This document shows, in pieces, positions 4,572 to 58,640 of a stretch of 64,000 bases of DNA. The stretch lies in assembly GCA_017531445.1 (NCBI GenBank), contig JAFXKZ010000002.1, positions 201,286-265,285 of the forward strand, read 5' to 3'. The first letter of the stretch is position 1. The number at the start of each line of letters is the position of its first letter. The stretch comes from Kiritimatiellia bacterium (lineage in GTDB: Bacteria; Verrucomicrobiota; Kiritimatiellia; RFP12; DVOR01). The translations under genes and the position numbers were made by a program. The notes beneath the pieces are model-generated. The model saw nothing but the letters and a program-made list of their open reading frames with translations, did not search any database and had not been told where the DNA came from.

Positions 4572-4725
4572 ATTTTGAACTTCGGCGAAATAGCTTGTTG
4601 ATTTTGTGGACTTTCAATCGCAATTTCGGCGACTTTGGTGGGGAAAAGTCGCCGGGATTGTTTTTTGTTTTCGCCGTACCGAAATGGACACATTGGGAAG
4701 TTGAGGGTAGAGGGTTTAACTTTAC
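4572..4725 (+). repeat. GGCGA/TCGCC-box extragenic element, copy R1
   Basis: Collinear identical blocks shared with copy R2 (51001-51125): GGCGACTTTG, GCCGGGATTG, TTTCGCCG, AAATG, CACAT, GAAGTTGA. Inner hairpin CGGCGACTT/AAGTCGCCG (4627-4653). The 19-mer at 4572-4590 is the exact reverse complement of 51076-51094. Confidence 0.6.
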
Positions 4726-5039
4726 CGGAGTTGTATACTAATCGTATTTCCGGCATTATTAGTCCACGATGTACTATTTCCCTAAGCGGTTTTCCGAAGT
4801 GCTGTTTTGCGAGTAATAAGCGGTTGACATCAATGCCGTATTTCAATCTATTTGATAGTACAATCTATGACAGATTATAAGTCAGACGTCATCGGGTAAC
4901 CGTGGCACAGACACTTTTAAGGTTTAGGTGGTAGAGAATTTGTTTTGAATAAGTCGCTATTCAGCATTTCTTGGAGTGTGGCTTAATCAATCAACGGATC
5001 GGGTGGCTCTTCATCCCATACGTCTTTCATCATTTTTGA

Positions 5040-5470
5040 GCTTTAGGGTGATCGGCTTTTACGGTTCCTCGAATATAAATATAAGCCGAGATTTGGCTTG
5101 TTTTGCACCATAACCATACAAATAAACGTAGCCGAGATTGAATGATGTCGAAATTGCAATGGCTTTGGGGACGTTTGAAGGACCTTCCTCAAGGTTAGTT
5201 GCGTAGAGAGCGTCAATTTGTTCCATAAGTTAAAAACTTCTTCTATGGACTGTTCCACGCCTTGGCCTTCTGCATAGCATAGATGTCTCTACATGACTTT
5301 GTTCAGCCGCCTTACTCAACCTTTTGCAGCATCTACGAGATCTTTCGCGCCACCACTCCTTGCTCATAGCTAACACCCAATGCGTATTGCGCCACTACGT
5401 AGCCTTGCTCAGCGGCTTTTTGATACCCACAGCCCAAAGTGGGAGACTCTCTTTTAAGCGATTGGGTAAG
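5040..5470 (-). pseudogene. Decayed Sel1-repeat (SLR/TPR-like) protein gene
   Basis: Minus-strand translation gives Sel1-type repeats in shifting frames separated by stops: YQKAAEQGYVVAQYALGVSYEQGVV, then KAAEQSHVE in another frame, then YAEGQGVEQSIEEVFNLWNKL (the last part lies in ORF 5043..5258). No long intact ORF. Confidence 0.45.
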
Positions 5471-5841
5471 ACAACTTCAATTCAAGGTCTGTATACGTGA
5501 GAAAATGCCAGAGCCTGGTGTAAGCGGATTGCCACAGGTAAATGGCACGGGATTGAGATGTAGATGAATGGGCGCGAATCTTTTATTCAGGCGGTCTTCT
5601 GCATCTTCTCTCCGATGGTGTAGGCGGCTTCTTGTTTTTATAGGAAACGGAAAACGGTAAAGACTGTTGAAGTTTGATTGCTTTGCGATTGGCGGTAAAC
5701 CGGGTGGTGATACACCGCCCGACTTTCACATTCTTAACAGCTTTTGCAAGACCTCCAGAGGAATCGGTGAAATATGCGATGTACGATTGCGGAAAAAGGT
5801 GCTGCCCACAATTGAAAATTCGTGTCGTGCCGGGCTGTTTT

Positions 5842-5850
5842 TGCTATAAT
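5842..5850 (+). promoter_or_regulatory. Extended -10 promoter element TGCTATAAT upstream of gpmI
   Basis: TGnTATAAT match 29 nt upstream of ATG 5880. GAAAGGAA RBS between them. Confidence 0.45.
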
Positions 5851-5879
5851 GAGCGCGTTTATTCAGAAAGGAATCTGTT

Positions 5880-7439: not shown

Positions 7440-7526
7440 GTGGCTGCTGACATGAACTTTTCCGGGTGGCGGTATCACTGCTGCCCGGCTCTTTCCTATA
7501 AAGGTGGGAATGAAAGTGATTTAGAG

Positions 7527-9169: not shown

Positions 9170-9198
9170 GATTTCCGTTGAGTTTCCCGTTGCATTTG

Positions 9199-9234
9199 AT
9201 TGGCTGGTCGTTTCACTCGCCGGCCAATTTTTTG
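9199..9234 (+). terminator. Rho-independent terminator after folE
   Basis: ATTGGCTGG...CCGGCCAAT stem (one G-U pair) followed by TTTTTT. Confidence 0.65.
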
Positions 9235-9469: not shown

Positions 9470-9513
9470 TTGAACTGGTTTTAATTAGAATTGATTGTCG
9501 AGGATTTTTGATA

Positions 9514-13476: not shown

Positions 13477-13482
13477 TTGCGT

Positions 13483-20500: not shown

Positions 20501-20859
20501 TATTTGGGAGCAGAGGTTGCAATTTCAACGTGTTATTTGTAAAAAAGTTTATTTGGCTTCTTTATTGGCAGATAGAATGAGTTGAACGGATATCACAAAT
20601 TGCGCTTCTGCTTTTAATGAATCGTGCAACCCGTTACGGTTTGCCGAGGTGAGCGATGGACAGCCAGAGAAAACGGCGATTATTTCCCTACAATAATAAT
20701 AGAGCGTGAACACCTGCATGGGGGAATGTGTTCGGTGGAGGGGAAAAGGATAAAGGTGTGTTTTGGGAGAGGATTTTTTTGGGGGTGACAGAGGGGGAAA
20801 GGCATATACTTGGAATGCGAAGGTGAAAGATTGCAGCATTTGTTGCTGAAAGGCTTTTT

Positions 20860-20945
20860 CAACATGGGCGAAGTGGCGCGTCAAGCTCGCCCATGTTGCG
20901 ACTGCGTTTCGCCGAAATTCGAGAGAGGTATCGGCGATATTCCGT
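20860..20945 (+). repeat. GGCGA/TCGCC-box extragenic element, copy R3 (four-box form)
   Basis: 12-bp perfect helix CAACATGGGCGA/TCGCCCATGTTG (20860-20871 / 20887-20898), then TCGCCGA (20909) / TCGGCGA (20931). Block order and spacing match copy R4. Confidence 0.6.
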
Positions 20946-21115
20946 GCCCGCGTGCATGGAGAGGGGACGCGTGGAAGAGAATGAGGGATTTACCTGTGGT
21001 GAAACGCATCGCTGAATACGGCAACTGAAAATTCAAGAGCATGGGCTTTCTTATGTAAAAAAACACAATTGTTAAGACGATTTAACATTCGCCTAATATT
21101 TCTCTAACATGAACA

Positions 21116-26918: not shown

Positions 26919-26939
26919 GGAATGAAAGGAGGTAGAATT

Positions 26940-41900: not shown

Positions 41901-44900
41901 ACAGCACTTCAAGTAGATGAGTTTGAAGAACTCGACACACTCACGATTAATGCCGCAACAGGAACTGCATGGTCATCAATTGCCGAACAGCTTGAAAACT
42001 CGAAACAAGCCTTGTCGGCAGATGCGGTATTGACCATCAATTTCGGTGATGGCGATACGCCGGGTTCTTTTGTGTTCGACAATGCCGAAGCGTTAACGTT
42101 TGCTTCTGTTGTCGTTACGGGTTCTGCGGGTGGTACGGTGACAAGTAGCGAAGGTGCATTAACCTTTACTTCTTTCACACGCGAATCCGCTTGCACCAAT
42201 TTGACTGTGGATGCTAAAGTTTTCACCGCGGCATATGGCTCCGGCGCACAGACAATTGATGGGTGGACTTTGGGTATTACGGTTCCTGCAGAAGGTAACG
42301 TGACGCTCTCTAACGCCTTCACGGTTAATTCAAATGCCATACTCAAGAAGGTAGGGGCCGGCACATTGTCACTTACTTCAACAAGTAATACACTTCATGG
42401 TGGATTAGATGTGAAGTCTGGTACGCTGATTTTGGCTTCTGCAGACAGAGGTATCAAGGGAGATGTCGTTGTTGCACAAGGCGCGACACTTGCGACAACC
42501 GCGAATGATGCAATCAACTACAGTGCATCCTCAACGCAGACCATTACCATTAATGGTACGGTTCAGGTTGGCGCAAAGTGGACCATCTTTGCCAATAACA
42601 AGATTGTCTTAGGTGCTGGCGCAGTATTGGACACTTACAACAATTATGCCGAGCCATTAGACTTCTTCCGTGCGAACTGCCCGATTATGGTTACGGGTGC
42701 GGATGCAATTATTCGTGCTGTGATGTTTAATCACAATAATGACACCTCTCACTCTGTGAAGATAACCTTCGCGGAAGGAGCGTCATTGACCATTGAGGGA
42801 AATGTTGAGACTATTCCTGTGACAACCGAATTGGCAGAGGGCGCGACTTCGGCTACATTGGCACTCACGGGGACGAAGACCTCAACTTCGAGGTTGACGG
42901 TAGGTAATGGCATCACACTCGCTGGTGATGGCACATGGTCGGGCCCAGCAACCTTCAATGGTGGTAAGATTCAAGTGGTGACCAACCTTGAACAACCTAT
43001 CACCATTAAGGGCGCAGTGACGGCTTCTCAGCCGATCGAAGTTCTCTTTGATGAGACTGCGGAAGTGCCGGTGAAGGTCTTGGCCTCTACGAACGCCTTG
43101 ACGGAAGAGATGTTGGCAGTTCGTACAGGTTACTCACGCGTGGTGGAAACAACCACTGAGAGTGAAAGCACCATCTACACCTTGTGCTACGATGAAGCTG
43201 ATGACACAGACGTGACGGCGATTGCGACCACGATTAACGAAACAGTGGAGTGGTCAGCTTTGGCGTGGACAAACATTGAATCGGGTAATACGATTGACCT
43301 TAACACTGTGACGGCAGAAAATATCACGTCGGTCACGCTCAATGTTGCAGAAACGGCAACATTGAGCCTTGCGGATGTGAAGACAGCCTTCCCGAATGCT
43401 GTCGTGACAATTAACTACACTGCACAAGGTAAGACATTAACGCTTGCGGGTGAAAGTGTGGTATTGCCGGCGATTACGGTGACAGGTGAGTCGGGCATGC
43501 TGAAGACGACGGCGACCTCGCTTGTGATGGATGCCTTGTCTGTTGTGCCCATGGGCTTCGGCTTTGACGTTGCGCTCTTGAATAGTGCGACAACATTGAC
43601 CGCCTTGCCGACGGCTTACACCCTTTATGGTGATGGCTCGACCTTGACAAAGACCTTGCCAGCTACGGCCACGGTGACTTTGCAAAGTGGTACGATAAAA
43701 TTGGGTGCGAACAATGTGCTTAATACGGCGAATACGATCATTCTCAATGCGGATGCTACGCTTGACTTGAATGGAAAGGAACATGATGGATCCTTAACAT
43801 TGAATGGTGGTAAATTGACGAATACAGGAAATGTCATCGGGATGAATTTGCAGCAATTGCGCAATCTCGTCCTGACAGCAGATTCTGAAATTGAAGTCAA
43901 TGACGGCCATGCGTTCCATTTGATTCATTCGGGCTATGGCGTTCAGACGCTCACCTTGAATGCTCATACCTTAACCAAATCGGGGACTGGCACAATGGCG
44001 TGGTGCAATGTTTCTCCAGCCAATGGTACGGTTAAGGTTACGAATGGCACTTTAGAGATGCGTTCGGGCAATAACGGCACGGGGGCAAACAATACGTGTA
44101 CGCTTACGGCTGTAACGTTGGAAGAGAATGGCGGAGAGATTCAGATTACGCGTAATTATGCACTTGCTAATACCGTAACGCTAAAGGGCGAAATCTCCAT
44201 TGCTTCTGTGCTTTCGGGTGATGGTGCCTTGAATGTGGCTGCGGGAACACTCACACTTTCGGGCGCAAACACCTACACGGGAGGCACGCAGATTGCTGAA
44301 GGCGCGAAGGTGATTGCAACATCCATTGGTACGGGTGAGGTAACCGGTGCCGGTGACATCGAATTGTTGATTAATGCGACAGCGGTTTCAGTCCCCAATA
44401 TCATCAAGGTCGCTTACACAGGTGCGGCAACGCTTACTGCTTCTGGCGACAATGGTGCTATTGTTGAAAATACGACCAATGTGACTTGGCCGAGTGGTAA
44501 ACAGTACATCTTTAATGGTGGTACACATGCCTTGACCTTCTATCCCGGTACATTGCCAAATGATAAGTCTACTGAAACTGAAGACTCCGCCTCTATTCAG
44601 GTGAAGGCAAACACCACTTTAACCTTGAAGGCGCGCGACTTTGGTGGTTGGACTGGCTCTCACTTTAACAATATTGCCCTTTCGGTAAAGGGTGAAAATG
44701 CGAAGGTGATCGCGGCAAGCTTTGACTCTCATCCCGGTTGCTTTGTTGGCCGAGTGTATCTCGCCGATGGTGCAACAATCCAGGGCGGTGATAACAACAC
44801 GGACGCGATTAACTTCTTTGGTAACGCCGATGATGCAAACATCCATGTCACATCCGGATCTGCTTCTTGGACAAATAAGTTGTGGATTGGCAATGGAGGT

Positions 44901-47900
44901 GGTGGAAATATCACCAATCTTGGTATTACCGTGGAGGAAGCCGCTTCCTTTGATCTGTCGGCCCTTGTTCAGAACAACAAGGGCATTAAGAAGTGCGGCG
45001 CAGGCGCGATGACACTTTCGGGTGAGAACACCTCAACAGGCAGTTTAATTGTGAATGAGGGTACTGCTGTGATTACGGGTGCTTGGGCTGGTGCCACCTC
45101 TGTGGCTGCGGATGCAACGCTTACTGGCACTGGCACTATCGGTGGCACATTGACCTTTGCCGAAGGTGCCACGTTCAAGGTTAATCCCTCGGCTGCAAAT
45201 CCCTTGAAGGTGACTGGGACAATCTCGGGAACGGCGGCGATTGCGTTGGCCGAAACTCAAGAGGTCATTTCAAAGATAGCACTTATTGCTTCGAATGAAA
45301 CAATTGATCCGGCCAACTTTGGTGCAATCTCGGGTTATACATATGTCGTTGAAACGGTAGATGGCGTCCATACGCTTTATGCAGCAGTTGCCGCTCCGGA
45401 AGCATTGACTGCAACGCTCTCAGGCAATGTCGCATGGGCTGACGTACCGTGGATGAGTGATGAATCAATTGCAATTTATCCTGAAACGATGAATGTTTCT
45501 CAGGTGACAACGATTACCTTGAATCTTACAGCTGATACCACGCTCACCTTCGGGGATGTACAAGCGACCTTCCCGGCTTTGACGACAGTAAAAGTCAATC
45601 CTATGGCAGAGAATCTCACGTTTACTATCGCAGGTGACCGTGTGACCTTGCCAACGGTAACGACAGACTTGTTTGTGCAGCCTACGCCAATGGTCTTCCT
45701 TTCAACGGCGACTTCGCTTACAATTGAGAAATTCCAGCCGAAACTCAGTGGTGAGTATGCTGTAGGCATCGGCGTCTCGTTCGTGAACAGTTGCACTGTC
45801 GTAAACTTCCCGACAACTTATCGTCTCTTTGGCGATGGATCGGTATTGACCAAGCAGGTCTCGGCGAATGCGAGCGGCATTCAATTGGCTGGCGGCATCG
45901 TCAAGATTGCAAATAGCGACATCTTGCAGTCGCGTCCGCTCTTTGTGGAGCAAGGGGCAACGTTTGACCTCAATGGTAATACGCATCTCGGGTCACTCAC
46001 CTTAAATGGTGGTAAGCTGACGAATACAGGAAATGCAATTGGTACGAATGAACAGCAATTGCGTAATCTCGTCCTGACAGCGGATTCTGAAGTTGAAGTC
46101 AATGAAGGTCATGTATTCCACTTGATTGATGGTAGTTACGCATTACAGACGCTCACCTTGAATGATCATACCTTAACCAAGTCGGGAACAGGCAAGATGC
46201 AGTGGTGTAATGTTTCACCGGATGGTGGCACAATTACAGTTACTGGCGGCATCCTCCTGATGCGAGCCGGCGGTCAGGCAGAGAATGGGACAGACCGTGC
46301 TGCTGACACCTGTACGCTTACGGCTGTAACGTTGGAAGAGAATGGCGGCGAGATTCAGATTACGCGTAATTATGCACTTGCCGATACCGTAACACTCAAG
46401 GGTGACATTTCTATCGCTTCGGTGCTTTCGGGTGACGGAGCCTTGAATGTTGCCACCGGGTCGACTACCCTCTCGGGTGCGAACACTTACACGGGTAACA
46501 CAACGATTACTGAAGGTGCAACCCTGAAGGTGACGACGAAGGATGCCCTTGGTTCCACGCGTAATGCTAGCGGACAGATCGCACTCGGTAATACGACCCT
46601 CACAGGAGCAGGCTCTCTGGAGCTCGCCTTCGCTGATGCCGAAGCATCTTTGGAAATGATTGGGAATGGCGGCACCTTTACTGGTGACATCATTGTGACG
46701 GGCGGCACCTTGAAATTCCCGAATGCTTCGGGAGGTTCAGGTCCTGTTCATGGCCGTGTGATTACGGTCACAGGCGCGAATGCAGTTTTGACGACGGGTA
46801 CCAATAGCGATGCGACGGGTTGGAATGTCTCCGGTCGTCAAAAGTTGGTCTTGGCGGATGGTGCTCAATTCAAGGTCTATAAGCGTGACACCTTCAAGAC
46901 GCCGCTTGAAATGACAGGTGCCAGCGTGATCTTAATGAATGGTGCAAACGATGGTGGCCGAGGATTAGATTGGTATCAATCACCATCGTTAACCGTGAAG
47001 GCAGAAACAGGTGCCACGGCTGAATCCCCCACGGAATCGTTTATCACGGTGGCTGCTGATGCAACTGCGAATGACCAAAAGATCAATATTCGTGATGATA
47101 ATGGCAATGCCCGTTGTTCAATTCCCGCAAATGTTGAAGCGAATGCCCGCTTGACGATTGATGCCCATCTCTATGGTGATGATATTGTTAAAACGGGCGA
47201 AGGCGAATTGGTATTGACCAATGCCACAAACGCTTATAATGCAACGACAATCAACGGCGGTACGTTGACCGTAACGGGTGCAACCGGAACGGGTGCTACC
47301 ACCATGGCTGTGGGGACAACCTTGCGTGGCACAGGCACAGTGAAGGGCGCACTTACCTTTACAAATACCTTGGCAGAGGACGGGACAACCGTATCGGCTA
47401 TGCCGACCTTGATTGTTGATGCGGCTTCGGATGCGGATCCCGCCTTGACTGTGAATGGTGCAATCACTGGAAAGGTCTCCGTGCGCTTTACGACCGCGAT
47501 TACCACGCAAGCCTTGGTGCCTGTGTTGCATTCGTCGCAAGCAATTGAACCTGAAAACTTCATGATGGAAACCGCATTACCAGAAGGTTATGCACTCCAG
47601 GTGATTGAAGACGAAGGTCTTTATACGCTTGCCGTGGCAAAGGAAAACTTCCAGATTTATACAGAACTTCATGCTACGGTGACGGAAAACGCAGCTTGGA
47701 CAGCCCTTTCATGGACGGATGGCGAGGGCAACGCTGTTGAATCCGGCGATATTGCCTGGAGCCTTGTCGAAACCGTTGTTCTGACAGCGGAGAATGGCGC
47801 AGTTGTTACTATGGATGTGGCACTCCCTGTTCTGACAGCACTCACAATTGAGGGCGGCTCATTGACCTTGCAGAATCATTTGGAAACAAAACTCTCTGCA

Positions 47901-50855
47901 AGCACTGCGTTGGCTGTGAATAATGGTGCTTCCATCAAATTGGTTGATGTTTATGCGGCTTCTGCAAACATAACACCTACTGGCACAGGTGCAATTACAT
48001 GGGCACCCGTGGAAGCGGTCACGCATACAGGGAAGTTTACCCTTCCGGCAACGATTTCTTTCATCACAGAAGGCGATCTCACCTTAAATAATACCGGCAA
48101 CGTATTTAATGGTTCGTTGACGGTGGCTTCGGGTACGCTCACCTTGGCGACCGCATCGCAAGGTTTGGCAGGTGATTTGACTGTCGCGTCTGGCGCTACG
48201 CTTGTTGGAAGCTCAAATGATGCTCCGACATATAGCAAGTCAACGACAATCACAGTTAATGGCACCTTGCGCTTGGCAGAAGGTATTCGTTGGACGATTG
48301 GTGATGATAACACCTTGAATCCGATGGTATTGGGTGGTGGCGCACGTCTGGAAGGCACAGGGAATACGCCGCTTAATTGCCAGACAACGGCCTTTGACTT
48401 CTTCAATAACAATGCGACCTTGAAGGTGACTGGCAAAAATGCTGTTATTGCAGGCCTGATGGGTGCACATACTGGAGGAGCCGAAAAGACGTTGAATGTC
48501 ACCTTTACCGACGGCGCATCGCTCATATTGGAAGGTGGCGTTGTTGCGAATGCGTATTCCATCAATACCGCGCTTGAGGAAGGCGCCGCCGCAGCAACTT
48601 TGACAATCACAGGCGAAAAAGCTGCCACTGGCACACTTACGATCGGTGCAGGGATCACGTTAACGGGGACAGGTTCATGGGCCGGCACGCTCGCCTTCAC
48701 TGAAGGCGCTACGCTTGCAGTGGTCGATCCCGACGAGGTGCTCTCTGTAACGGGTGCTATTACAGGCGCAGCTGCGGTTATCCTGCCGGAGGGTGTGGTC
48801 GCACCTGAAGGAGAGGAACGTCTGACGGTTCTCTTCACGGAAAGCACTGCTTCAACAGTGTCCTTTACCTATGGTGATGGCTCTACTCACATTGTTGTTC
48901 CAGAAGCAACGGAGGGAGGCGTTAATTACAACTTGGTGCGCAAGCCTACATACTCAGCCTTGTCGGCGACGGTGACAGGAAATGCCAACTGGTCTGAATT
49001 GATTTGGATGGCAGGTGAGACAGAGGTTACAAATCCCGTGTGGGGAGCCGTTACGGCGGTGACTTTGACGGCGGAAGCGGATGCTACGGTGACGCGCGAT
49101 GTAGCGACACTTTCCCTCGCTTCGCTCACGGTGGCGGATTCGGAATACGCCTTGACGCTCTCAGGCACAACATTGCCTGCGGCAGCAACCCTTATGGTGG
49201 ATGGCAATGTTTGCCTGGGTGAAGGTGTCGTAACAGTGATGCCGAATTTGCGTGGTGCGGGTACGCTGACCTTCATGGGTGGTGAGATTATTTCAAGGCT
49301 CGCAGGTAATGCTGACACAAGTTACGCTTATAATGATTTCACTGGTCGTTGGATTCTTGAAAATGGCACAACGATGCGTATCCGTGGCGGGGGAGCCCAG
49401 ATGGGGCAGCTCAACTGGAATTCCACCGTGGAAGATAGCGGTCAGATTGAAGTGCGTCAGGGTGCTCGCCTCGTGCTTGAAGCTCAAAACGTCTTCGGTT
49501 GGGGTGCAGTGAATGACCTCCATCAGCGTAAGGTCTTGGTTGTAGATGGTGGCGAGGTTGAAATCTCCGCTGTTGAAAACTACATCCGCCGTACGATTGA
49601 GTTGAAGAATGGTGCTACCTTGGCATGTCCTGCTACGAATAGTACTGTTTACTTCTCGCGTGGTGCTACAATTGAAGTCACTGAAGGTGAAGCAACCATT
49701 TCTGGTATGTTGAATATCAGCTGTGATAATGCTGGTAATTCCGTTGGTAAGGGGGCAACGATTCGTGTGGATGAAGGCGCCACGCTCAATCTCCCTGGCT
49801 CAATCGCTTATGGTAAGAATGGTAAAACCTTCGCCTTGACCTACACGGGTGGTGGTACGGTGAACGTTACCGGTGAGAACTCCTATCATACCTACACTGA
49901 AACAATTGTGGATGAGGGCATGACCTTCATTATGAGTGGCTCCCATATCGCTCCTGACGAAAATACACTCAAGCCTTATACGATTAAGGCGGGAGCAACG
50001 CTCGCAGGTTCGGGTACGATTAATGGTGCGGTGACCTTTAATGAGGGTGCAGTTGTGGTGGCCGATGGTCAGGCTTTGACCTTGGGCGCTGTGACTTCTG
50101 TAAATACCTTCGTTGAGGTGACGGCATCGTTGGCGACTGCTGATGATGCGGTGACGGCCTTCACTGCTACGAGTGCACTGGATGTCAATCAGTACGCAGT
50201 GGCGCCTGAATATGCGCTTGAAGTGGTGCCTGCTACAGAGGGTGAAACAACGACCTATGCCTTGGTGGTGAAGCGCGCAAGCTTCGTGACCTTGACGGGT
50301 ACGGAAGATTTCGCGGCTGAAACACAGCAGGTCGTTCGCGACATCGTGATTGATGCCTTGAAGGCTGAGTCGGTGACGGAAGGCGCATATGCTGTTGATG
50401 TGGAAGTTTACACGAAGGGTAGCGAGACACCTAAGACGCCGACGGCGGATGAGGTGGATGCGCTCGTGGGTTGCTTCATCAACGTGGAAACCGTGGAAGT
50501 GAATACAGAAACGAATACCGCGAAGGTGAAAATCGCCTATGAATTCGGTCTTGCAGACGTAACGGTTGATGCCAATCTCAATGTCATTTTCAAGGCATTG
50601 GTGGAACGTATTGATGAAGCGCGTAATGATGAACGGGGTTTGGCAGATTATGCCGACGGCGTAACGTTCTCGATTACGGATACGCTTTCCGGCGAAGTCT
50701 GGGATATCGCCGACGAAAATGTGGAAGCACCGCAAGATGAGGTAGGTGCAGTTTATCTGATGTTGCCGGATGCTTATGAAGTGGAAGGACAACAACGGTC
50801 GGTCCTGACCAACTTCATCGGCACGCGTAAATTCAAGGTGCGTGTAAAACGTTAA
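26940..50855 (+). CDS. Giant (7971-aa) secreted beta-helical surface protein with PATR-type repeats, InlB-B-repeat-like modules and an embedded discoidin-like domain
   Basis: AAGGAGG RBS 7 nt upstream of ATG 26940. Sec-type signal MKAKQILTFFAALAFSWPLMAAT. Uninterrupted 23.9-kb frame. Five N-terminal units capped by D-x-G-A-x-E. Canonical PATR string SGDGALNVAAGTLTLSGANTYTGGTQIAEGA. Eight supermodules each headed by W-x2-L-x-W. Thr/Gly/Ala/Val/Asn-rich. Confidence 0.9.
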   Translation: MKAKQILTFFAALAFSWPLMAATLQSFVNEEHVDGDIILVPDGEYEPSDLSQETRRLTFRAENEGEVIIDGGTTTRCVDLSDSITLEGFLLRNGKAEQGGGVRGGTIVRTTVQNCTAIFGGGAYKTNIRASIFKHNSAEFFGTAAYGGTAFSSRFEENTSASYGGGMATLFGVTTANCAIVNNRALHDVAGTMASPVQNMVYYANVAERGNYEGSPTKDIDAVGGAPEGEAFKSVSGVDIFTNVAIGDYTLDVTKAAEHVKEKADPSLGGNYDVLWYDKDLAGRPRLLDQALDIGPYEIADTITVTCEVKGVGEVAVVPTEVQEGDPVTFTATSDTYQREFIGYYVNDRLVSTEATMTYAPLKEDKIVARFAGLTLDPTNEALDSLEEVIAALHPSILEEVTLTNGTFAIPALDKPVAFVGASTSETTVNLSGDCKGAYVINATVTGADVSNVTLHRCLVNNFSGANVTLTSSIIASTCTNISGKAVNTTAWNAMPAGLTQVDCVVLSGTTNTVTDAILLKNDTNIDAGQGGSDIIPYDNFDIAGRPRVSGTKVDCGAHECNYITVSVAAEGYYAALSPTVETYDKLTGDILTLSYESPRTFRGWRLADGTVLTREPSYTYVLPEGDCVLTASFEGFALTPESTIPNDTTAADTIVLAPGIYTQDFTTAATIVGTGLQDEVVLTGTIAGGARLEAVSFEDATLSNVTLNRCYVSGGSATNVTAYNSILVNLTSATGTYINNTTVNTVLPETAKNTRVLNAIVEDYTPPQEEADKGGSLTNDERLALGDYDYYGNPRVNNATIDNGAVEYEWPPYIVTIDVIGHGLVEPRGAVEVVRGAPLTFTVKQDPKHPRNLVSVSGAEDKGNGIYSVYPNADATVTVTFEMLPEVTTDDALQEALVEAQDGETITVAPGTYGAIDVKGKRLKIVASDLNPANTVIDALGQGRAATLTGGAEIIGFTIQNGIANKGAGVYQGTVRRCIIQKNTLTYNGFGAGVCEVFAESCLIVDNGSENVVRSNGGGASTSDLLNCTVVRNIADKGAGLYDCTAKNCVIALNTDLAGAVSDWAGDSVAPDPTDCCTPTTGGITVDAGTLFVDPENNDWRLREGIACIDAGTNDDRLSEKDVTGAVRVYDDAVDMGAIEWNSPDYNITIAFQGRGIATVDGTEIAWDAEASAKVLSVPRTQQKLSLQWKEDAATSVVRTFVGIMANNAMLEGSTDAVNNAFTWTIAAEDTVNVMLTFIAEDLSVTTAEELTAALESAIAGETIKLAEGNYDVEVDIGTGVIVDGASKATLLQGATLADGAVLKRVTVTGAGVTGPETGRAELIQSIVKGVTGVAVKQNMVLKTCLVYENTIGVMDSTAYLSTIVSNTAAGVSGTSRIYGTVVWGNGVDVEESVERIDSYVGGNPKFTLPAPDGEDYTVLTQSPLIDLAETAQWEGFTDADRSLADLAGNARPALNGYDIGAYELQVAADPFALWTWYGSAYTVDGTWSGSNWRKLIYGAPYNLPANESARFIDRDGFASAEVAIDSVVTIPSLQLENAKCALAFRDAGGRLTVNSGVIKSSSGDLTLAAQMDIKEQLYLSAGALTVEEGASVAVDGKFVASSTPVTMTGGLLSAATKSDLFGTTQFTLTDGTFEFGDYLNIRDSVFVDLAGGTVTGGEISVAQDTRDALRFSGADVTVSKIETGDESSGRYGNIVQTGGTLTVTGSGSGKSAPLHISHWSGWSNYTMTGGQLFVPNGEVRIGQDGNGHLILSGGYAEVKSIGITNGKVTLAGGTLKVQTTQTLPITFTAGTASRVIAPDAESAYLQITPSEAGDIIFGESLGYFQIGTSSEWVTVTNNNLIFENGVRLSAKIALTGTGKGITVPGSGTAPVITSGSFSVDQLAFSGDLSEEETMLLTIRVSSGHTAITAEQFTVTGRWAGNCSLRVAGPEEANGYAIYNVYATRTGTPAVVGTPTLTLAGGTTEWTSNNWSPAFVAGGDAIVRVMEDSTLDMDAYKTVNNLTIEIAEGKTLTIAKGSSLSAAGTVTLVGGGTLRLENAFIYGSIATCDLAQIISNVSSQEWQGTALNGVPIRVEQSATLSNLNEIDLSIAEGVTVGLPTTCRGLLVSDGACTLSTDSATTFTGEAVFGGAVTLVWNTTFNGSLVLGALPATSEKVFYGDVEVTLPEGVDLTIPSGQITSGAYFKKTGEGKLTLSDASYNANLRLGGVVEFTQDTTINGALHIEEGAVVFLPYDATLIATGEVRIEPSVRFILTTSPEANVTLADAYTLLSSNTAAGLVIDQLATLSVMWQNIPADETLSNPQVALAGDMLVYTLTRESAKVWTGATSSDWSTASNWSDNVVPEADDTVRFTDAATTKTVELSSSVPVGVMTFASGDYTLNGGMNLNSFTGKTDVNHLAGTTAWVDTFIERGVYTIYAGAKATLAQEMGYVYKGSFAGEGALELIGGSFTLAAASVGYSGAFTVGTDTSLTLVNAESLYAATVNVAGTLAVESDASVATVVMEDGGQLRLSKDYTFTVREEITGDVAISIATLPDEVGDWEIMALPMNTAASFTLLNETSAEDKFIAFLSQSEDRLILSLRPTTDIAWASKNVTTGADVWNVYGTPVATTVTAGKRVWLTDVEGVTAATISLPENPSSVMVEAVETVYTINNATAVTMPMTVMAGSQVVLRTNATLSELSNGGVITVQNATLDLTETQLVGRGKVIAGTGGIVRISAQTLAESTMTFSCEGGKLEVVTTEDFSMPTNRIPDNCSGLIKEGEGTLYLPPAAMSSTITVNDGVLMPTGAIALKARYFKFEPHERFAGSAWWLPATGLSDFVTTLSGERQAWPDGAKIVRFDSGVTNKIQIGITGDSQSSIDGISGKIANVFDNDLNTQLLWNDWHDSYGTGDKWRRNYFVIDAGEQGFKFTGYNVGTPDNLDAFFWKWSVAVANDISNWRPNTELSTKTADEDTIWQTIDERTFPEDKTLFKTSAWMNAGEYAARRQSGFWSEYTGSVNLASASAVLDLSKAVGTSGILQDEVEMATVSGVGTLKVPTSLKVTADTLSMNTLHLTGTDVLKTPISVKSTAVISTITMDEAVSAAYNESPSADFVLIEGYTGTIAPTLSGMQDPGDGGTWQLAVIDGNLHLGLANSPRFLATTLLSESENWSSLAWTDILGNPIEPDWAAVEEITIKMTSTSPDKVTLTLPSGIAVSGIERIVFDFGDTESKRVCLTGSGTLQTKVLEIKGEHRGTLLPDSTTLLTAESLEVNAPEWDTSPKLLDMFGGSSASWRAPNVPMGIIAKTTTEAIASKVLGTALITVREGTLKLRKEEQFDSMTRELHVAAGATLDVNGCPISNNLTLQGGTLTNSGAGIGTHKRQNYNITLTADSVISGVSDYYSLNNGYNVHTLTLNGHTLTKRGTCAFGFYNANIEGGDGTIVVEAGTLRVQPHNSNVRTLKDVTFVEQGGTVEISAPVTLSGTVTLDGGICSAAVTVAADSKVRGTGTIAGALTLNSGAKIEVYSLAEPLKLSGDYPATITMSTMEGLEYPATVVPILSIANATEATRPYVTLENLPGSRKLEWNEDYTVLNVVPQDALSTETTVKATLSGDANWSTLNWTDSNGVGINPDWRIVTNVTLTATADAIITRDVATEAITSLTIAESSFKIDLQGTALSALTTLAANGDVSFGLGMLTTMPTALSGDAEITFYTDVATTLGGGDTTYAYNDFTGRWIIEDGATLTIGGEGGGKMGQLNWNSAIADSGQIEVRQGGTLTLGTNHAFGWADGANQRNRTVLVVDGGRVVCDANYDQYVRRTFELKNGAELYSSATTPGKGISLGRDTNILVTEGEASLTGTMFIGCDSQHSNQQNILNIIAQPGATLKIPASINNGANQSNADVDVEDMKFSGGGTIVLSGTTLNSYTRMQVAADTTLLVNGTVSFVKPITFEANAIVGGTGSIAPVSTYSSTASVTFSEGTKIKIVDETDPLSIQVGAYTTFTPPSGGIGVIFPEDMVSGNSVKVLTSTSLLATSDLSVPDGYTTTVETSGSWYTLVCSKTSLDQFPTILTDVSGEMDWDALTWQNESGASLDSSLMDWSVVTTAVLRVTDNTILTLPENIASGNQIATLKVEFVKEGSTLTFAGATASVPVIQVIGVKSGRLATTATALTATALSVESGVVGLDVATLNAITSLSDSVTYTLYGDGTLNKALPGTTPVTIASGTVKPSAANQISGRMVTINSGATLDVNGFAQACTVTLAGGTLTNTGAALSDQSAWQTYGITLTADSTIGGTADMRSLNTNWAAHTIALGSRTLTLDNTSTLYWTNASIENGAIQVARGTLDIGYGWDKDNGWAKKEAEATLRNVTLTVAEGAKLTLNRGMTIEGTVVFSEGATFNKDVAIILAQPDGQTASLTVPTSAITGETRIEVDSLTLTGTAAPAVLPTFTGITVNVGETLKTAIAGTTTARILLATLEGNEPVVNNVPDGWHVEIVDNTLSLANNAFPTHLVTTCTGSVTWDDLPWTNASSQTEVVYADVDKELVTAITLKVQGDATLFVTDIKTLLPNVETLNVVYETADALLTFAGDAIVLPALALSGENGSIHSTATTIAIDGMTSSQAAVGLGVGIWNVVSWTSPMPTLYRLYGNGETLNKELPEVATPLTTYGDITLEKVPTGSAAITIASGKLTFEPSESEVTLTTPISGGSLACKGTTTYTIAAANRCVVTTLEIGAETVVKATAQNALQTTTITGEGTLIGVAYLVSGTVSEDWTGVVRFEDVASYTYLNLSNYGNAQSKIELKNLGTANGNVYLVNSTYEVAADLQLEGANYINNGFYANSYTFSGDLTGDGSLTWGTYGTPNDCYFFTGDLSGFTGNLTQLRANRIVLGNNTNVTQDALTIDGTTTWNGTLTANADRYIRVMGSAILSGSGTLASNVTFQAEATLDVTAGTNLTVAEGKTVTLPEALTVKLPVDTEMPVTILSTTAFAGSEGLDDCVVTVEGAEGAFRLRKTATALQVDEFEELDTLTINAATGTAWSSIAEQLENSKQALSADAVLTINFGDGDTPGSFVFDNAEALTFASVVVTGSAGGTVTSSEGALTFTSFTRESACTNLTVDAKVFTAAYGSGAQTIDGWTLGITVPAEGNVTLSNAFTVNSNAILKKVGAGTLSLTSTSNTLHGGLDVKSGTLILASADRGIKGDVVVAQGATLATTANDAINYSASSTQTITINGTVQVGAKWTIFANNKIVLGAGAVLDTYNNYAEPLDFFRANCPIMVTGADAIIRAVMFNHNNDTSHSVKITFAEGASLTIEGNVETIPVTTELAEGATSATLALTGTKTSTSRLTVGNGITLAGDGTWSGPATFNGGKIQVVTNLEQPITIKGAVTASQPIEVLFDETAEVPVKVLASTNALTEEMLAVRTGYSRVVETTTESESTIYTLCYDEADDTDVTAIATTINETVEWSALAWTNIESGNTIDLNTVTAENITSVTLNVAETATLSLADVKTAFPNAVVTINYTAQGKTLTLAGESVVLPAITVTGESGMLKTTATSLVMDALSVVPMGFGFDVALLNSATTLTALPTAYTLYGDGSTLTKTLPATATVTLQSGTIKLGANNVLNTANTIILNADATLDLNGKEHDGSLTLNGGKLTNTGNVIGMNLQQLRNLVLTADSEIEVNDGHAFHLIHSGYGVQTLTLNAHTLTKSGTGTMAWCNVSPANGTVKVTNGTLEMRSGNNGTGANNTCTLTAVTLEENGGEIQITRNYALANTVTLKGEISIASVLSGDGALNVAAGTLTLSGANTYTGGTQIAEGAKVIATSIGTGEVTGAGDIELLINATAVSVPNIIKVAYTGAATLTASGDNGAIVENTTNVTWPSGKQYIFNGGTHALTFYPGTLPNDKSTETEDSASIQVKANTTLTLKARDFGGWTGSHFNNIALSVKGENAKVIAASFDSHPGCFVGRVYLADGATIQGGDNNTDAINFFGNADDANIHVTSGSASWTNKLWIGNGGGGNITNLGITVEEAASFDLSALVQNNKGIKKCGAGAMTLSGENTSTGSLIVNEGTAVITGAWAGATSVAADATLTGTGTIGGTLTFAEGATFKVNPSAANPLKVTGTISGTAAIALAETQEVISKIALIASNETIDPANFGAISGYTYVVETVDGVHTLYAAVAAPEALTATLSGNVAWADVPWMSDESIAIYPETMNVSQVTTITLNLTADTTLTFGDVQATFPALTTVKVNPMAENLTFTIAGDRVTLPTVTTDLFVQPTPMVFLSTATSLTIEKFQPKLSGEYAVGIGVSFVNSCTVVNFPTTYRLFGDGSVLTKQVSANASGIQLAGGIVKIANSDILQSRPLFVEQGATFDLNGNTHLGSLTLNGGKLTNTGNAIGTNEQQLRNLVLTADSEVEVNEGHVFHLIDGSYALQTLTLNDHTLTKSGTGKMQWCNVSPDGGTITVTGGILLMRAGGQAENGTDRAADTCTLTAVTLEENGGEIQITRNYALADTVTLKGDISIASVLSGDGALNVATGSTTLSGANTYTGNTTITEGATLKVTTKDALGSTRNASGQIALGNTTLTGAGSLELAFADAEASLEMIGNGGTFTGDIIVTGGTLKFPNASGGSGPVHGRVITVTGANAVLTTGTNSDATGWNVSGRQKLVLADGAQFKVYKRDTFKTPLEMTGASVILMNGANDGGRGLDWYQSPSLTVKAETGATAESPTESFITVAADATANDQKINIRDDNGNARCSIPANVEANARLTIDAHLYGDDIVKTGEGELVLTNATNAYNATTINGGTLTVTGATGTGATTMAVGTTLRGTGTVKGALTFTNTLAEDGTTVSAMPTLIVDAASDADPALTVNGAITGKVSVRFTTAITTQALVPVLHSSQAIEPENFMMETALPEGYALQVIEDEGLYTLAVAKENFQIYTELHATVTENAAWTALSWTDGEGNAVESGDIAWSLVETVVLTAENGAVVTMDVALPVLTALTIEGGSLTLQNHLETKLSASTALAVNNGASIKLVDVYAASANITPTGTGAITWAPVEAVTHTGKFTLPATISFITEGDLTLNNTGNVFNGSLTVASGTLTLATASQGLAGDLTVASGATLVGSSNDAPTYSKSTTITVNGTLRLAEGIRWTIGDDNTLNPMVLGGGARLEGTGNTPLNCQTTAFDFFNNNATLKVTGKNAVIAGLMGAHTGGAEKTLNVTFTDGASLILEGGVVANAYSINTALEEGAAAATLTITGEKAATGTLTIGAGITLTGTGSWAGTLAFTEGATLAVVDPDEVLSVTGAITGAAAVILPEGVVAPEGEERLTVLFTESTASTVSFTYGDGSTHIVVPEATEGGVNYNLVRKPTYSALSATVTGNANWSELIWMAGETEVTNPVWGAVTAVTLTAEADATVTRDVATLSLASLTVADSEYALTLSGTTLPAAATLMVDGNVCLGEGVVTVMPNLRGAGTLTFMGGEIISRLAGNADTSYAYNDFTGRWILENGTTMRIRGGGAQMGQLNWNSTVEDSGQIEVRQGARLVLEAQNVFGWGAVNDLHQRKVLVVDGGEVEISAVENYIRRTIELKNGATLACPATNSTVYFSRGATIEVTEGEATISGMLNISCDNAGNSVGKGATIRVDEGATLNLPGSIAYGKNGKTFALTYTGGGTVNVTGENSYHTYTETIVDEGMTFIMSGSHIAPDENTLKPYTIKAGATLAGSGTINGAVTFNEGAVVVADGQALTLGAVTSVNTFVEVTASLATADDAVTAFTATSALDVNQYAVAPEYALEVVPATEGETTTYALVVKRASFVTLTGTEDFAAETQQVVRDIVIDALKAESVTEGAYAVDVEVYTKGSETPKTPTADEVDALVGCFINVETVEVNTETNTAKVKIAYEFGLADVTVDANLNVIFKALVERIDEARNDERGLADYADGVTFSITDTLSGEVWDIADENVEAPQDEVGAVYLMLPDAYEVEGQQRSVLTNFIGTRKFKVRVKR
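35305..35840 (+). other. Discoidin (F5/8 type C)-like lectin domain embedded in the giant protein
   Basis: ARYFKFE...IANVFDNDLNTQLLWND...RRNYFVIDAGEQGFKFTGYNV...WSVAVANDISNW...WQTIDERTF matches the jelly-roll carbohydrate-binding pattern and interrupts the beta-helix repeats. Confidence 0.5.
37713..38560 (+). repeat. Giant-protein supermodule type A, copy 1 (in-frame coding repeat)
   Basis: ANWSTLNWTD...YAYNDFTGRWIIEDGATL...GQLNWNSAIADSGQIEVRQGG...VLVVDGGRV...ELKNGAEL is paralogous to 48984..49810. Confidence 0.7.
43803..44312 (+). repeat. Giant-protein recent internal duplication, copy 1
   Basis: NGGKLTNTGN...LRNLVLTADSE...TLTLN.HTLTKSGTG...CTLTAVTLEENGGEIQITRNYAL...SGDGALNV. 44097-44168 differs from 46311-46382 at 1 of 72 nt by eye. 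Confidence 0.8.
46005..46530 (+). repeat. Giant-protein recent internal duplication, copy 2
   Basis: Collinear with 43803..44312 at an offset of 2202-2214 nt (a 12-nt indel between the copies). Confidence 0.8.
48984..49810 (+). repeat. Giant-protein supermodule type A, copy 2 (in-frame coding repeat)
   Basis: ANWSELIWMAG...YAYNDFTGRWILENGTTM...GQLNWNSTVEDSGQIEVRQGA...VLVVDGGEV...ELKNGATL. Confidence 0.7.
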
Positions 50856-50876: not shown

Positions 50877-50914
50877 CAGCGGCTTCACGTAACGACGTGA
50901 AGCCGCTGTGTTTT
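50877..50914 (+). terminator. Rho-independent terminator after the giant gene
   Basis: CAGCGGCTTCACGT-AACG-ACGTGAAGCCGCTG (14-bp perfect stem) followed by TGTTTT. Confidence 0.75.
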
Positions 50915-51000: not shown

Positions 51001-51125
51001 ATTGTTCAATATCGCCGAAAGCGTCCTGAAGCATGGGCGACTTTGCAACTGAACACTGCCGGGATTGAACGGCCGTTTCGCCGAAGTTCAAAATGCACAT
51101 CCCGAAGTTGATTACCTAAGTAGCG
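51001..51125 (+). repeat. GGCGA/TCGCC-box extragenic element, copy R2
   Basis: Collinear blocks shared with R1 (see 4572..4725). CATGGGCGA and CGTTTCGCCGAA are 42 nt apart, the same spacing as in R3. Confidence 0.6.
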
Positions 51126-56406: not shown

Positions 56407-56425
56407 AAAATGGTGTCAAACAAGG

Positions 56426-58303
56426 TTACCGCGCCATCAATGCGGCCACGAGACGATTGAACTTGGCCGGATCGGGAGGGAGCGTGCCTTCGGCCAGACA
56501 GGCTTGTCCATACAACAGATCAATCGTATCGCTCCGCTGTGCTTCATCCGTCATTCCGGAGAGCGACTTGATTAAGGTGTGGTCGGGATTCAATTCCAAA
56601 ATCCGCTTGTCTTCGGGGACATTTTGCCCCATTGCTTCCAACATACGGCGCATTGCCGGGCTGAGCGCAGAGGGATCTTGCACCAAACAACAGGGCGAAT
56701 CGGTCAGGCGTGACGTGAGACGCACCTCTTTTACCGTCGCCTCCAACTGCTTCGTAATCGTCTCCAGAAGCGGCTGAAGCGTCTTGCTTGTTTCATCGAG
56801 CGTCTTCTTTTCCGATTCGTCAGCCAAATCAAGATCACCCTTATCGGCAAAGACAATCGGCGTTTTGTCATACTCATAGAAATCAGCTGCAATGAATTGA
56901 TCCACAGGCGTGGTCAAGAAGAGCACGTCATATCCTTTTGCCTTCAGTTGTTCAAGACAAGGCGACTGCTGAGCGGCTTGCAGAGAATCTGCAGTAAGCA
57001 TATAGATGGATTTCTGCCCTTCGGCCATGGCAGTTTTGTAATCTTTAAGGGAAGTGTATTTCCCATCCTTCAAGTTTCTGAAACGGAGCAACTCGGTAAT
57101 TTTTTCGCGGTTTTCCCAGTCAGAGTGATACCCTTCTTTGAGGAAATCACCCAAGGCCGTTGTGAATGTTTCGTATTGTTCCGGCTGTTCTTTTGCCATC
57201 TCGGCGAGGGCTTTCAAAATACGATTGGTGACATCCGAACGGATTTTTCGGATGATTGCATCGTCTTGAAGCATTTCACGCGAGACATTGAGCGGAAGAT
57301 CGCTGCTGTCAACAACGCCTTTAAGGAAGCGCAACCACGAGGGTGTAAGTGCTTCAATCTCATCACCGATGAAAACATTGCGTACATAGAGCGAAAGACC
57401 ATGCTTGTTTCCGGGCATCATCATTTCCATGCCCACGGTCTTCGGCAGGAAGAGCAGTGCCCGATACTCCAATGTGCCTTCAGCTGCGATGTGCAACGTC
57501 TTCAAAGGTTCGCCTGTGCCATGCAACGTCTGACGATAGAAGGCTTCATACTCTTCTTGCTTCACATCGTTTTTCGACCGCTTCCAGAGTGCGACCATGG
57601 TATTGAGCGGTTTGGCCTCCTCGGCAGCTTTATCCGCCGCAGCTTTCTCATCTTTTGCCGGTTCTGTATCTTCCTCATGCAGATAAATTGGGTAGGCGAT
57701 AAAGTCGGAATAACGGCGGACAAGATCTTTTAACGTCCAACCGGTTGCAAATTGTTCCTGATCGGGACGCAAATGGAGAGTAATGGAGGTGCCGGGCGTT
57801 GTGCGCGATCCTTCATCCATTGTATATTCGCCATCTCCAGCACTCATCCACTTCACAGGAGTTTGACCTTCTCCCCGACGCAAAGAATCCACGGTGACAC
57901 CATCTGCTACCATAAAGGCAGCATAGAAACCCACACCGAACTTACCAATCAATTCAGGAATATTGGTCTCTTTTCCTTCTTTCAGTGCTTCGGCAAATGC
58001 CTTGGATCCGCTCTTGGCAATAGTGCCGAGAGCATCTTCCATCTCCTGCGCATTCATACCGATACCGTTATCTTCAATCGTCAAGGTATGCGCTGTGGCA
58101 TCTGCCGTTAAACGGATCGTCCATTCGGGAGCTTCCGGGGCAATGGTTGCATCCGTCAATGCCAAATATTTCGCGCGATCAATCGCATCGCTGGCATTGG
58201 AAATCAATTCACGCAAAAAGATTTCTTTCTTGGAATAAAGCGAATGAATCACCAAATCCAACATCTGACGGATTTCGGCCTTAAATGCACATGTCTTTGC
58301 CAT
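56426..58303 (-). CDS. htpG: Molecular chaperone HtpG (Hsp90)
   Basis: HSLYSKKEIFLRELISNASDA, GKFGVGFYAAFMVA. 625 aa. Confidence 0.95.
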   Translation of the reverse strand: MAKTCAFKAEIRQMLDLVIHSLYSKKEIFLRELISNASDAIDRAKYLALTDATIAPEAPEWTIRLTADATAHTLTIEDNGIGMNAQEMEDALGTIAKSGSKAFAEALKEGKETNIPELIGKFGVGFYAAFMVADGVTVDSLRRGEGQTPVKWMSAGDGEYTMDEGSRTTPGTSITLHLRPDQEQFATGWTLKDLVRRYSDFIAYPIYLHEEDTEPAKDEKAAADKAAEEAKPLNTMVALWKRSKNDVKQEEYEAFYRQTLHGTGEPLKTLHIAAEGTLEYRALLFLPKTVGMEMMMPGNKHGLSLYVRNVFIGDEIEALTPSWLRFLKGVVDSSDLPLNVSREMLQDDAIIRKIRSDVTNRILKALAEMAKEQPEQYETFTTALGDFLKEGYHSDWENREKITELLRFRNLKDGKYTSLKDYKTAMAEGQKSIYMLTADSLQAAQQSPCLEQLKAKGYDVLFLTTPVDQFIAADFYEYDKTPIVFADKGDLDLADESEKKTLDETSKTLQPLLETITKQLEATVKEVRLTSRLTDSPCCLVQDPSALSPAMRRMLEAMGQNVPEDKRILELNPDHTLIKSLSGMTDEAQRSDTIDLLYGQACLAEGTLPPDPAKFNRLVAALMAR

Positions 58304-58334
58304 AGATTGTATTCCTTATCTAAATTGAAAGAAT

Positions 58335-58343
58335 AGTATACCA
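58335..58343 (-). promoter_or_regulatory. Extended -10 promoter element TGGTATACT upstream of htpG
   Basis: The minus strand reads TTTATGGTATACT, 31 nt upstream of ATG 58303. Confidence 0.4.
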
Positions 58344-58557
58344 TAAATCCGTGCTTTTCACCCACGGTCTGTTGTGTGAATATTCATGAAGCAATACTTG
58401 CCATCCTGCAGGTTTGAGAGGCGAACAGGGCGCAAGAATGTATCAGCCTTGAGAGGGCGATACACCACTATTATCCGATGCTTGACCACAAAAAGATCAG
58501 ACGGCACAGAGATCTCAATGGCAGGTCACCTCATTGTCATTGGGATGCGTAATAACT

Positions 58558-58640
58558 TTGGGCGACATTGCCCGTCAACATCGCCCATGTCGCAAGGGTA
58601 ACATCGCCGACATTGAGGAGCAAAACCGGCGATGTTCCAT
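58558..58640 (+). repeat. GGCGA/TCGCC-box extragenic element, copy R4 (four-box form)
   Basis: TGGGCGA, CGTCAA, TCGCCCATGT, TCGCCGA and CGGCGATGTTCC in the same order and spacing as R3. 10-bp helix AACATCGCCG/CGGCGATGTT (58600-58609 / 58627-58636). Confidence 0.6.

Follow-up and report, generated by a model that had tools for sequence, protein, structure and literature searches.

Four short segments of non-coding DNA, here called R1 to R4, lie in intergenic gaps of a 64,000-nucleotide stretch in the genome of a gut bacterium of the Kiritimatiellia. That stretch (the window) is C2:201286-265285 of the two-contig, 1.40-Mb assembly of the source genome (G000), which is 50% complete. An earlier reading of the window, the original prediction, described R1 to R4 as a four-copy family of structured elements. 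The segments and the blocks listed for them are present in the sequence at the positions reported. The family is nevertheless far larger, with 135 multi-box arrays in 1.40 Mb rather than four copies, and R1 to R4 are those of its members that fall in the window; across the genome the family consists of non-coding cassettes built from phased 17-bp boxes.

Four box arrays in the window

Scanning the window with a position weight matrix (PWM) for the box finds exactly four arrays, which match R1 to R4; none is assigned to a strand. R3 (20858..20944) is a full four-box array with centres at 20868, 20890, 20912 and 20934, a uniform 22-nt spacing and PWM scores of 19.8, 18.6, 15.2 and 16.7 bits. It occupies a divergent gap, with the minus-strand gene 18613..20352 (579 aa) on one side and the plus-strand gene 21155..22636 on the other. 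R4 (58552..58639) is likewise complete, with centres at 58562, 58584, 58607 and 58629 scoring 15.4, 21.1, 20.5 and 18.9 bits. Its neighbours are two minus-strand genes: 58695..59624, whose stop lies 56 nt before R4, and 56426..58303, whose start lies 249 nt beyond it. On the map of open reading frames (ORFs) R4 thus sits between a stop codon and the following promoter region. R2 (51005..51091) has four boxes centred at 51015, 51037, 51059 (decayed) and 51081, with PWM scores of 17.5, 14.0 and 17.2 bits, and a decayed fifth box near 51103. Its gap is convergent. R2 starts about 97 nt past the intrinsic terminator of the 7977-aa gene (plus strand, 50877..50908; a 14-pair stem, then a T-rich tail), and a minus-strand hairpin with a T-run can be read from the sequence at about 51135-51165, placing R2 between a plus-strand terminator and a putative minus-strand one. 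R1 (4575..4684), about 170 nt past the stop of the plus-strand gene 3541..4404, has five phased and partly decayed box positions at 4585, 4607 (decayed), 4629, 4652 and 4674, with an extra decayed box near 4696. The boxes at 4585 and 4629 score 18.1 and 19.2 bits with the PWM, the remainder being recognised by reading the sequence.

The relationship proposed among the four was assessed by pairwise local alignment against 500 shuffles. It holds for R3 and R4 (z 14.3, 0/500), for R2 and R3 (z 6.0) and for R1 and R2 (z 4.3, 2/500), but alignments of R1 with R3 and with R4 find no support (z about 1.2). MAFFT lines up R2, R3 and R4 along a GGGCGA...TCGCC...TTTCGCCGA backbone; R1 is a partly decayed copy of the family. 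The distance of 42-43 nt between boxes, first noted as a constant of all four copies, is explained as two periods of 22 nt.

The box and the four-box cassette

The commonest 10-mers of the source genome are AACATGGGCG (113 copies) and ACATGGGCGA (105), followed by ACATCGGCGA, ACATCGCCGA and AGATGGGCGA, where about 3 copies of each are expected; the core 10-mers are over-represented about 40-fold. Exact ATGGGCGA sites cluster 22, 23, 44 or 45 nt apart in either orientation. A PWM refined iteratively converged to a 17-bp quasi-palindrome of about 19 bits, with 1345 strand matches, where a third-order Markov genome gives 246. When boxes are oriented by the central base, the consensus is sAAyAT-sGGCGA-wrTTG, with T-s-G-G-C-G-A almost invariant; the core takes the forms GGGCG (127), CGCCC (128), CGGCG (103) and CGCCG (115). 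The distances between box centres are confined to a single series: 22 (256 pairs), 23 (69), 44 (142), 45 (78), 66 (47) and 67 nt (71), with at most one pair at each of the remaining distances up to 120 nt. Both the k-mer counts and this distance histogram are independent of the PWM. Chance resemblance among short GC-rich motifs might be suspected from the failure of R1 to align significantly with R3 or R4, but it is refuted by the 40-fold excess of core 10-mers, the exclusively 22/23-periodic distances and the excess of PWM matches over the Markov genome, and we consider its probability negligible.

Among the 135 arrays with at least two detected boxes, 88 have four boxes, 38 three, seven two and two five. 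The span is 66 or 67 nt in 113 arrays, and an additional box one period past either end is found in only 3%, so that the unit is a rigid four-box cassette of about 88 bp. Since centres 22 or 23 bp apart are separated by two helical turns, all the boxes face one side of the duplex. Between boxes the sequence is near random, and both there and in the flanks it varies freely, conservation being limited to box positions. Boxes of the same array are no closer to one another (11.7 of 21 positions identical) than to boxes of other arrays (11.5 of 21), and the 500-nt flanks of the 135 arrays, with the arrays masked, share almost no homology, yielding 24 short matches. The arrays are dispersed about every 9-10 kb over the chromosome.

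The orientation common to R1 to R4 in the original prediction does not survive this analysis: boxes are quasi-palindromic and either orientation is found inside one array. The pairing of GGCGA with TCGCC boxes, by contrast, is a genuine feature, since boxes 1 and 2 and boxes 3 and 4 tend to form inverted pairs, lying in opposite orientation in 61 and 53, respectively, of the 88 four-box arrays. An array is thus made of two inverted box pairs. The pattern +-+- is seen in 19 arrays and its mirror image -+-+ in two.

A different repeat, the 36-nt GTTGTGAAAAGACTCCCTCTTGGGATTTGATACAAT, with about 43 copies by 12-mer counts, lies elsewhere in the source genome outside the window and is evidently a clustered regularly interspaced short palindromic repeat (CRISPR) array.

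Location with respect to genes and promoters

Location was judged against a crude, home-made but conservative gene map, in which long ORFs were filtered by codon log-odds. By this map at least 132 of the 135 arrays are outside any confident gene. The non-coding character claimed for R1 to R4 is thereby borne out across the genome; their confinement to the largest gaps is not, as gaps from about 200 nt upwards hold arrays. Divergent gaps are favoured: arrays occur in 50 of 77, at a density of 0.87 per kb of intergenic DNA. The density falls to 0.40 per kb in convergent gaps, of which 15 of 77 are occupied, and to 0.32-0.40 per kb in tandem gaps, of which 67 of 668 are.

The tRNA genes, whose ends are exactly defined, offer the cleanest test of location. 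There are about 22 tRNA transcription units; an array stands 54-536 nt upstream of 12 of them and downstream of one, where about 1.5 would be expected on either side (binomial P = 2.4e-9 for the upstream excess). A promoter of the type TTGCGT/TTGCAT-N17-18-TATCAT lies between array and tRNA in 10 of the 11 cases listed. The arrays are, then, situated mostly upstream of promoters, and probably in non-transcribed spacer DNA. The tRNA promoters themselves share the consensus cTTGCGT/TTGCAT-N17-18-TATCAT, which lies 35-45 nt before the mature tRNA 5' end and often after an A/T-rich tract (for example at C2:886503-886557).

Two stricter versions of this relationship were considered and rejected. 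A fixed promoter geometry finds no place, since no sigma-70 or sigma-54 motif occurs genome-wide at a constant offset from the arrays and the distances at tRNA genes are widely spread. A strictly non-transcribed setting for every array was likewise not upheld, the counts of terminator-like and promoter-like sequences around arrays being weakly directional.

Folding, pairing and a search for RAYT genes

The original prediction favoured a small RNA or a repetitive extragenic palindromic (REP) element, with hairpins in each copy. More fully, the arrays might be REPs or bacterial interspersed mosaic elements (BIMEs) mobilised by a REP-associated tyrosine transposase (RAYT), or else structured RNAs such as small RNAs, terminators or mRNA-stabilising hairpins. 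The units are indeed extragenic, palindromic, numerous and clustered, and the many regularly spaced, alternating copies expected of REPs are found (135 arrays, 22/23 nt, opposite orientation in 61 of 88). R1, R3 and R4 also form more stable folds than their shuffled versions (z -2.7 to -4.6). They do so, however, equally on both strands. R2 does not fold, so that the hairpin potential noted for each copy is real for three of the four.

Pairs were counted for two candidate structures in an alignment of 42 arrays, with column-shuffled controls. Hairpin pairing within a box is seen in 60.4% of cells, compared with 64.2% after shuffling, and all 500 of 500 shuffles were at least as high; nor do mirrored positions show any excess of Watson-Crick complementarity in 476 boxes. 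Hairpins between boxes (1 with 2, 3 with 4) pair in 74.5% of cells against 72.0 +/- 0.8% in shuffles, a small excess that comes almost wholly from the orientation-defining core positions and leaves a quarter of cells unpaired. Such weak coupling between boxes follows from the preference for inverted box pairs. The imperfect palindrome kept as a stable stem-loop that characterises REPs is therefore not seen, and the overall pattern fits dyad-arranged sites on duplex DNA, not a structure kept for folding.

Rfam has no match in the window, either at the gathering threshold or at E<=0.1, in agreement with the earlier failure to assign the elements to a named family; the description as a dispersed extragenic repeat, loosely REP/BIME-like, was right in kind. 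The RAYT domain (PF01797, Y1_Tnp) is not matched in the source genome, at 50% completeness, nor in the array-bearing relatives G007 and G016 (93-95% complete), while five other congeners give weak partial matches. A RAYT partner was provisionally rejected for want of a match in the half-complete source genome and in G007 and G016, and the RNA reading was rejected on account of the Rfam result, the intra-box pairing below shuffled levels and the equal folding of both strands. With arrays, in addition, placed upstream of tRNA promoters and lacking strand bias, we regard REP/RAYT elements and structured RNAs alike as very improbable.

Arrays in related genomes

Relatives were sought in the genus Candidatus Spyradenecus and beyond. 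The three-box pattern of the source genome is present in four of 24 other congeners and in none of 16 genomes of other families, and sampling of 153 kb and 97 kb from two members of other families within the order revealed no 22/23-nt periodicity. Within the genus the number of phased pairs ranges from 0 to more than 400, and the box differs between species. It reads sGGCGA in the source genome, ATGGGCGAAATTG in G022 and G002, TCGCTGA in G041 and G005, and ACCCGGGGCGGGT in G003 and G009.

G022, a Candidatus Spyradenecus metagenome-assembled genome (MAG), has four-box arrays of box CAATATGGGCGAAATTG at 22 bp, with 26 matches to the three-box pattern. In G002 the box CAAAnTsGsCsAnTTTG recurs three times at 22 bp within a unit of roughly 110 bp, two compared copies of which are 94% identical. 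Box AATTTCGCTGA is spaced by 22/23 bp in G041 and G005 (45 and 35 phased pairs, respectively), many of the G041 copies being identical. G003 has the most, with 473 phased pairs of ACCCGGGGCGGGT at 22 bp in arrays of 3-7 near-identical units, many of them at contig ends. In 200-kb samples, many arrays are found in G016 (box GGATCAGC-C-GCTGATCC, 22 bp) and several in G007 (box GACCCCTATAGGGGTC, 23 bp). Near-identical copies are seen in G041, G002, G003 and G022, and arrays often lie at contig ends in G003, G002 and G022.

One position is shared. The minus-strand gene beside R3 (18613..20352) has as its G022 counterpart an S1-like ORF of 595 aa in L010, and an array lies upstream of the orthologous S1-like gene in the source genome, G022, G041 and G003, in each with the box of its own species. 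No array adjoins the orthologues, in relatives, of the genes flanking R2 and R4.

In some species the array is part of something larger. That of G022 stands inside a repeated non-coding module of about 750 nt (for example L010:3640-4460 in G022:C19, with copies in L005, L007, L008, L009 and L014), whose copies are 72-88% identical. Besides the four-box array it has three GC-rich hairpins in succession, three GTTATCAACAA motifs and a promoter conserved as TTGACT-N17-TACACT, and its copies adjoin unrelated housekeeping genes, rpsA-, lepA-, carB- and rpsL-like by their N-terminal sequences. G003 arrays (L025-L044) are often flanked by shared hairpin repeats, gccgaagtgccc..gggcgcttcggc, ggagcgcaccgcgctcc and ggggtgtgggggcg..gcccccac, the last of which resembles the final hairpin of the G022 module. 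These repeats and the arrays form a BIME-like mosaic of several repeat types.

Similar arrays also turn up in sequences catalogued elsewhere. A MAG labelled Pirellulales, CAZOCV01, contains arrays of six to seven boxes with 22-bp spacing and shared flanks (L151:440-590 and L158:6960-7080). Its box AACATCGCCCATGTT is the same as that of G022, yet the genome is labelled as another phylum of the Planctomycetes-Verrucomicrobia-Chlamydiae (PVC) group; a mislabelled bin or horizontal spread could account for this. A scan of viral contigs gave two matches, of which just one resembles an array. It lies on a 5.6-kb IMG/VR GVMAG contig and consists of three near-identical 22-nt units TATCGCCCATATTGCGCCCACG and a fourth, diverged copy (L221:1585-1665). 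On the strength of that scan, carriage by phage was rejected.

Other features of the window

Between R3 and the plus-strand gene starting at 21155 lies a promoter-like site, TTAACA-17-TAACAT (plus strand, 21082..21110), identified by its match to the consensus. Between R1 and a phosphoglycerate-mutase-like gene at 5880, positions 4700-5880 form 1.2 kb that look AT-rich by eye and contain no ORF of more than 81 aa. Short minus-strand frames there hold Sel1-like 'KAAEQ' fragments, because of which the region may be a decayed gene.

The 7977-aa ORF upstream of R2 (26922..50855) is apparently a giant surface-protein gene. Within it, the 1.65 kb at 47500-49150 are 97% identical to G022:C43:95023-96669, compared with 66-85% for other matched genes, which suggests recent exchange or gene conversion.

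Gene order in window positions 3000-22900 is very poorly conserved in G022 and G041 despite 66-84% nucleotide identity, with seven collinear blocks falling on seven different G022 contigs within 20 kb. A link between arrays and synteny breakpoints was considered and set aside. Relative to G022, each of R1 to R4 coincides with a break, yet breaks come about every 3 kb and, with seven blocks in 20 kb, an array is found at only two of six junctions, so that the coincidence is uninformative.

Comparison with known repeat systems

The nearest published analogue, and the only one described that full-text literature searching revealed, is BrickBuilt of Porphyromonas gingivalis. This consists of tandem 23-nt units without spacers, has conserved and non-conserved positions within the unit and is species-specific (Klein et al. 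2015, PMC4596501). It is always intergenic, 49-591 nt from the nearest genes, and is present in 19 copies of 1 to about 23 units with conserved leader and tail segments bearing terminal inverted repeats (PMC4596501). The arrays described here share the tandem 22-23-nt units without spacers and the intergenic location, and in G022 and G003 they also share inclusion in larger flanking modules and, with 3 to 7 units, a variable unit number. The source genome differs in its copy number (at least 135 in half a genome), in a unit number constant at four where that of BrickBuilt varies, and in flanks that are not shared; it has no conserved leader or tail, although the roughly 750-nt module of its sister G022 is leader-like. 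Its boxes, moreover, are quasi-palindromic, occur in either orientation and obey a pairing grammar. We know of no binding protein for either BrickBuilt or the arrays of the source genome.

This likeness brings in the main rival to the interpretation offered below, namely that the arrays are selfish, non-autonomous mobile elements of the MITE (miniature transposable element with inverted repeats) or minisatellite type, like BrickBuilt. The boxes would then be sites for a transposase or recombinase encoded elsewhere, and their location would reflect tolerance of insertion with no function for the host. Species-specific boxes, copy numbers that vary among congeners between 0 and over 400 phased pairs, near-identical copies in G041, G002, G003 and G022, many at contig ends, and the G022 module resembling a BrickBuilt leader or tail would all be natural under such an origin, as would the lack of arrays beside the relatives' orthologues of the genes flanking R2 and R4. 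It accounts poorly for the source genome, where copies have diverged save at box positions and in spacing, implying long-term constraint after insertion. The fixed number of four boxes is also unexpected, no shared flanks able to serve as terminal inverted repeats were found, and the PF01797 search produced no cognate transposase. On this evidence we find the selfish element rather doubtful as a full explanation, although on how the arrays spread it overlaps with the reading we prefer.

REPs and BIMEs resemble the arrays in comprising hundreds of extragenic palindromic units per genome, regularly clustered, alternating in orientation and specific in sequence to the species. In G003, G022 and G016 the arrays also co-occur with other hairpin repeats and with a TTATCAACA-like motif, a mosaic paralleled by BIME-1, which carries sites for IHF. 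The differences are that the arrays of the source genome show no selection for hairpins and no detected RAYT gene, that they keep a strict register of two helical turns with a constant four boxes, and that they stand upstream of promoters whereas REPs are mostly found in transcribed 3' regions.

Iteron arrays of theta-replicating plasmids and phased operators such as lambda OR and tandem ARG boxes offer a further comparison, having sites of 17-22 bp in a register of 21-24 bp that makes cooperative binding on one face possible. Iterons with a 22-bp register are familiar from the origins of pPS10, pSC101, R6K and RK2. The arrays might accordingly be replication or partition sites derived from a plasmid-type origin and bound by a Rep-like or centromere-binding protein. 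Both the register and the 4-7 units match, and DnaA-box-like motifs stand beside arrays in some sister species: those of G022, G016 and G003 adjoin GTTATCAACAA / TTATCGACA, similar in sequence to the DnaA box TTATCCACA. The motif was rejected as a general partner, however, being absent from the vicinity of arrays in the source genome, where all 41 TTATCNACA sites are more than 300 nt away from any array. Iteron and operator systems are confined to a single locus or a few in each replicon or regulon, the cognate gene being adjacent, whereas here there are 135 dispersed loci in half a genome, of mixed box orientation and with no associated gene found; no rep gene was seen beside the arrays read in detail, although no systematic search was made. 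An iteron origin would be a single locus per replicon where direct iterons stand together with DnaA boxes, AT-rich DNA and a rep gene; this is not what is observed, and we think such an origin very unlikely.

DNA uptake sequences and uptake signal sequences (DUS/USS) are short motifs, over-represented and specific to a species, that the competence machinery recognises and that are scattered through genes and terminators. The arrays are comparable in over-representation and species specificity but not in their strictly non-coding, four-box organisation.

Possible function and a candidate binding protein

Chance, an iteron origin, REP/RAYT elements and structured RNA are each contradicted by a test presented above. 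We consider it on balance probable that the arrays are cooperative docking platforms for a protein that binds double-stranded DNA, and that they have been spread by copying. Cooperative binding of protein is suggested by the conservation of contact positions only, in a dyad-like manner, together with the two-turn register, the four boxes and the pairing grammar. A putative sequence-specific protein would bind each 17-bp box on duplex DNA and, in the form of four dimers or two tetramers, fill the four sites cooperatively. This would give a nucleoprotein block of fixed size in non-transcribed spacers such as those of divergent gaps, tRNA operons and the ribosomal protein S1 gene. This block might act as an architectural or insulating element upstream, in a role like that of Fis or IHF sites at stable-RNA promoters or of BIMEs; such a function we infer from the promoter-upstream location alone.

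Spread by copy-and-paste is suggested by the near-identical copies and contig-end positions in sister species, which go some way towards documenting the origin of the cassettes. Selection may subsequently have kept only the contact positions, since the copies of the source genome have diverged yet are still constrained. Because the box differs between species of the genus, the specificity of the partner protein would have to change along with it. A fuller version of the model, which we advance tentatively as a possibility, is a previously undescribed chromosomal protein-DNA system of the genus with fast-changing specificity. It would place a four-site architectural or insulating complex on over 250 spacers upstream of promoters in each genome, among them most divergent promoter regions and half of the tRNA operons, and would be renewed by copy-and-paste at each shift in specificity, so giving each species its own box.

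As to the protein itself, one family attracted attention. Proteins of about 250 aa with an N-terminal HU-like domain (PF18291-type), restricted to the genus and fast-diverging, are encoded at L026:1477-2199 (G003:C4) and in L099, L100, L102 and L103. This HU-HIG-like family is expanded in the genus, with one to five copies per genome and identities of 31-34% between G003 and G022. In G003, about 310 nt separate one copy from an array. The family is not detected in G029, G030 or the 50%-complete source genome and is barely detectable in G007. On these grounds, and because the other copies have no typical array nearby, it is a doubtful candidate for the binder.

Several observations weigh against docking platforms as we have described them. 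Convergent gaps hold 15 arrays. At tRNA genes the distance from array to '-35' element runs from 8 to 462 nt, unlike that of classical activator sites, and the terminators and promoters around arrays are weakly directional (46 versus 35 of 87, and 22 versus 11 of 142). The HU-HIG-like candidate is absent from the 50%-complete source assembly; no 22-bp array is found near the HU-HIG-like loci of G016, of G003 (a paralogue) and of G022 (one of two), and at the second G022 locus (L103) there is no more than a three-unit repeat of 22/23 bp, whose box is different.

The arrays have practical consequences in giving rise to spurious ORF calls and, as their frequency at the contig ends of G003, G002 and G022 indicates, in breaking short-read assemblies. 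In the source genome the same rigid four-site array is carried by about two thirds of divergent promoter regions (50/77) and half of the tRNA operons. Within the genus, every array-bearing species examined keeps the 22/23-bp register but has a different site sequence. Should a protein bind the arrays, it would be a major and so far unstudied organiser of promoter-upstream DNA, and the genus would offer a natural series of matched protein-site pairs in which to study the evolution of DNA-recognition specificity.

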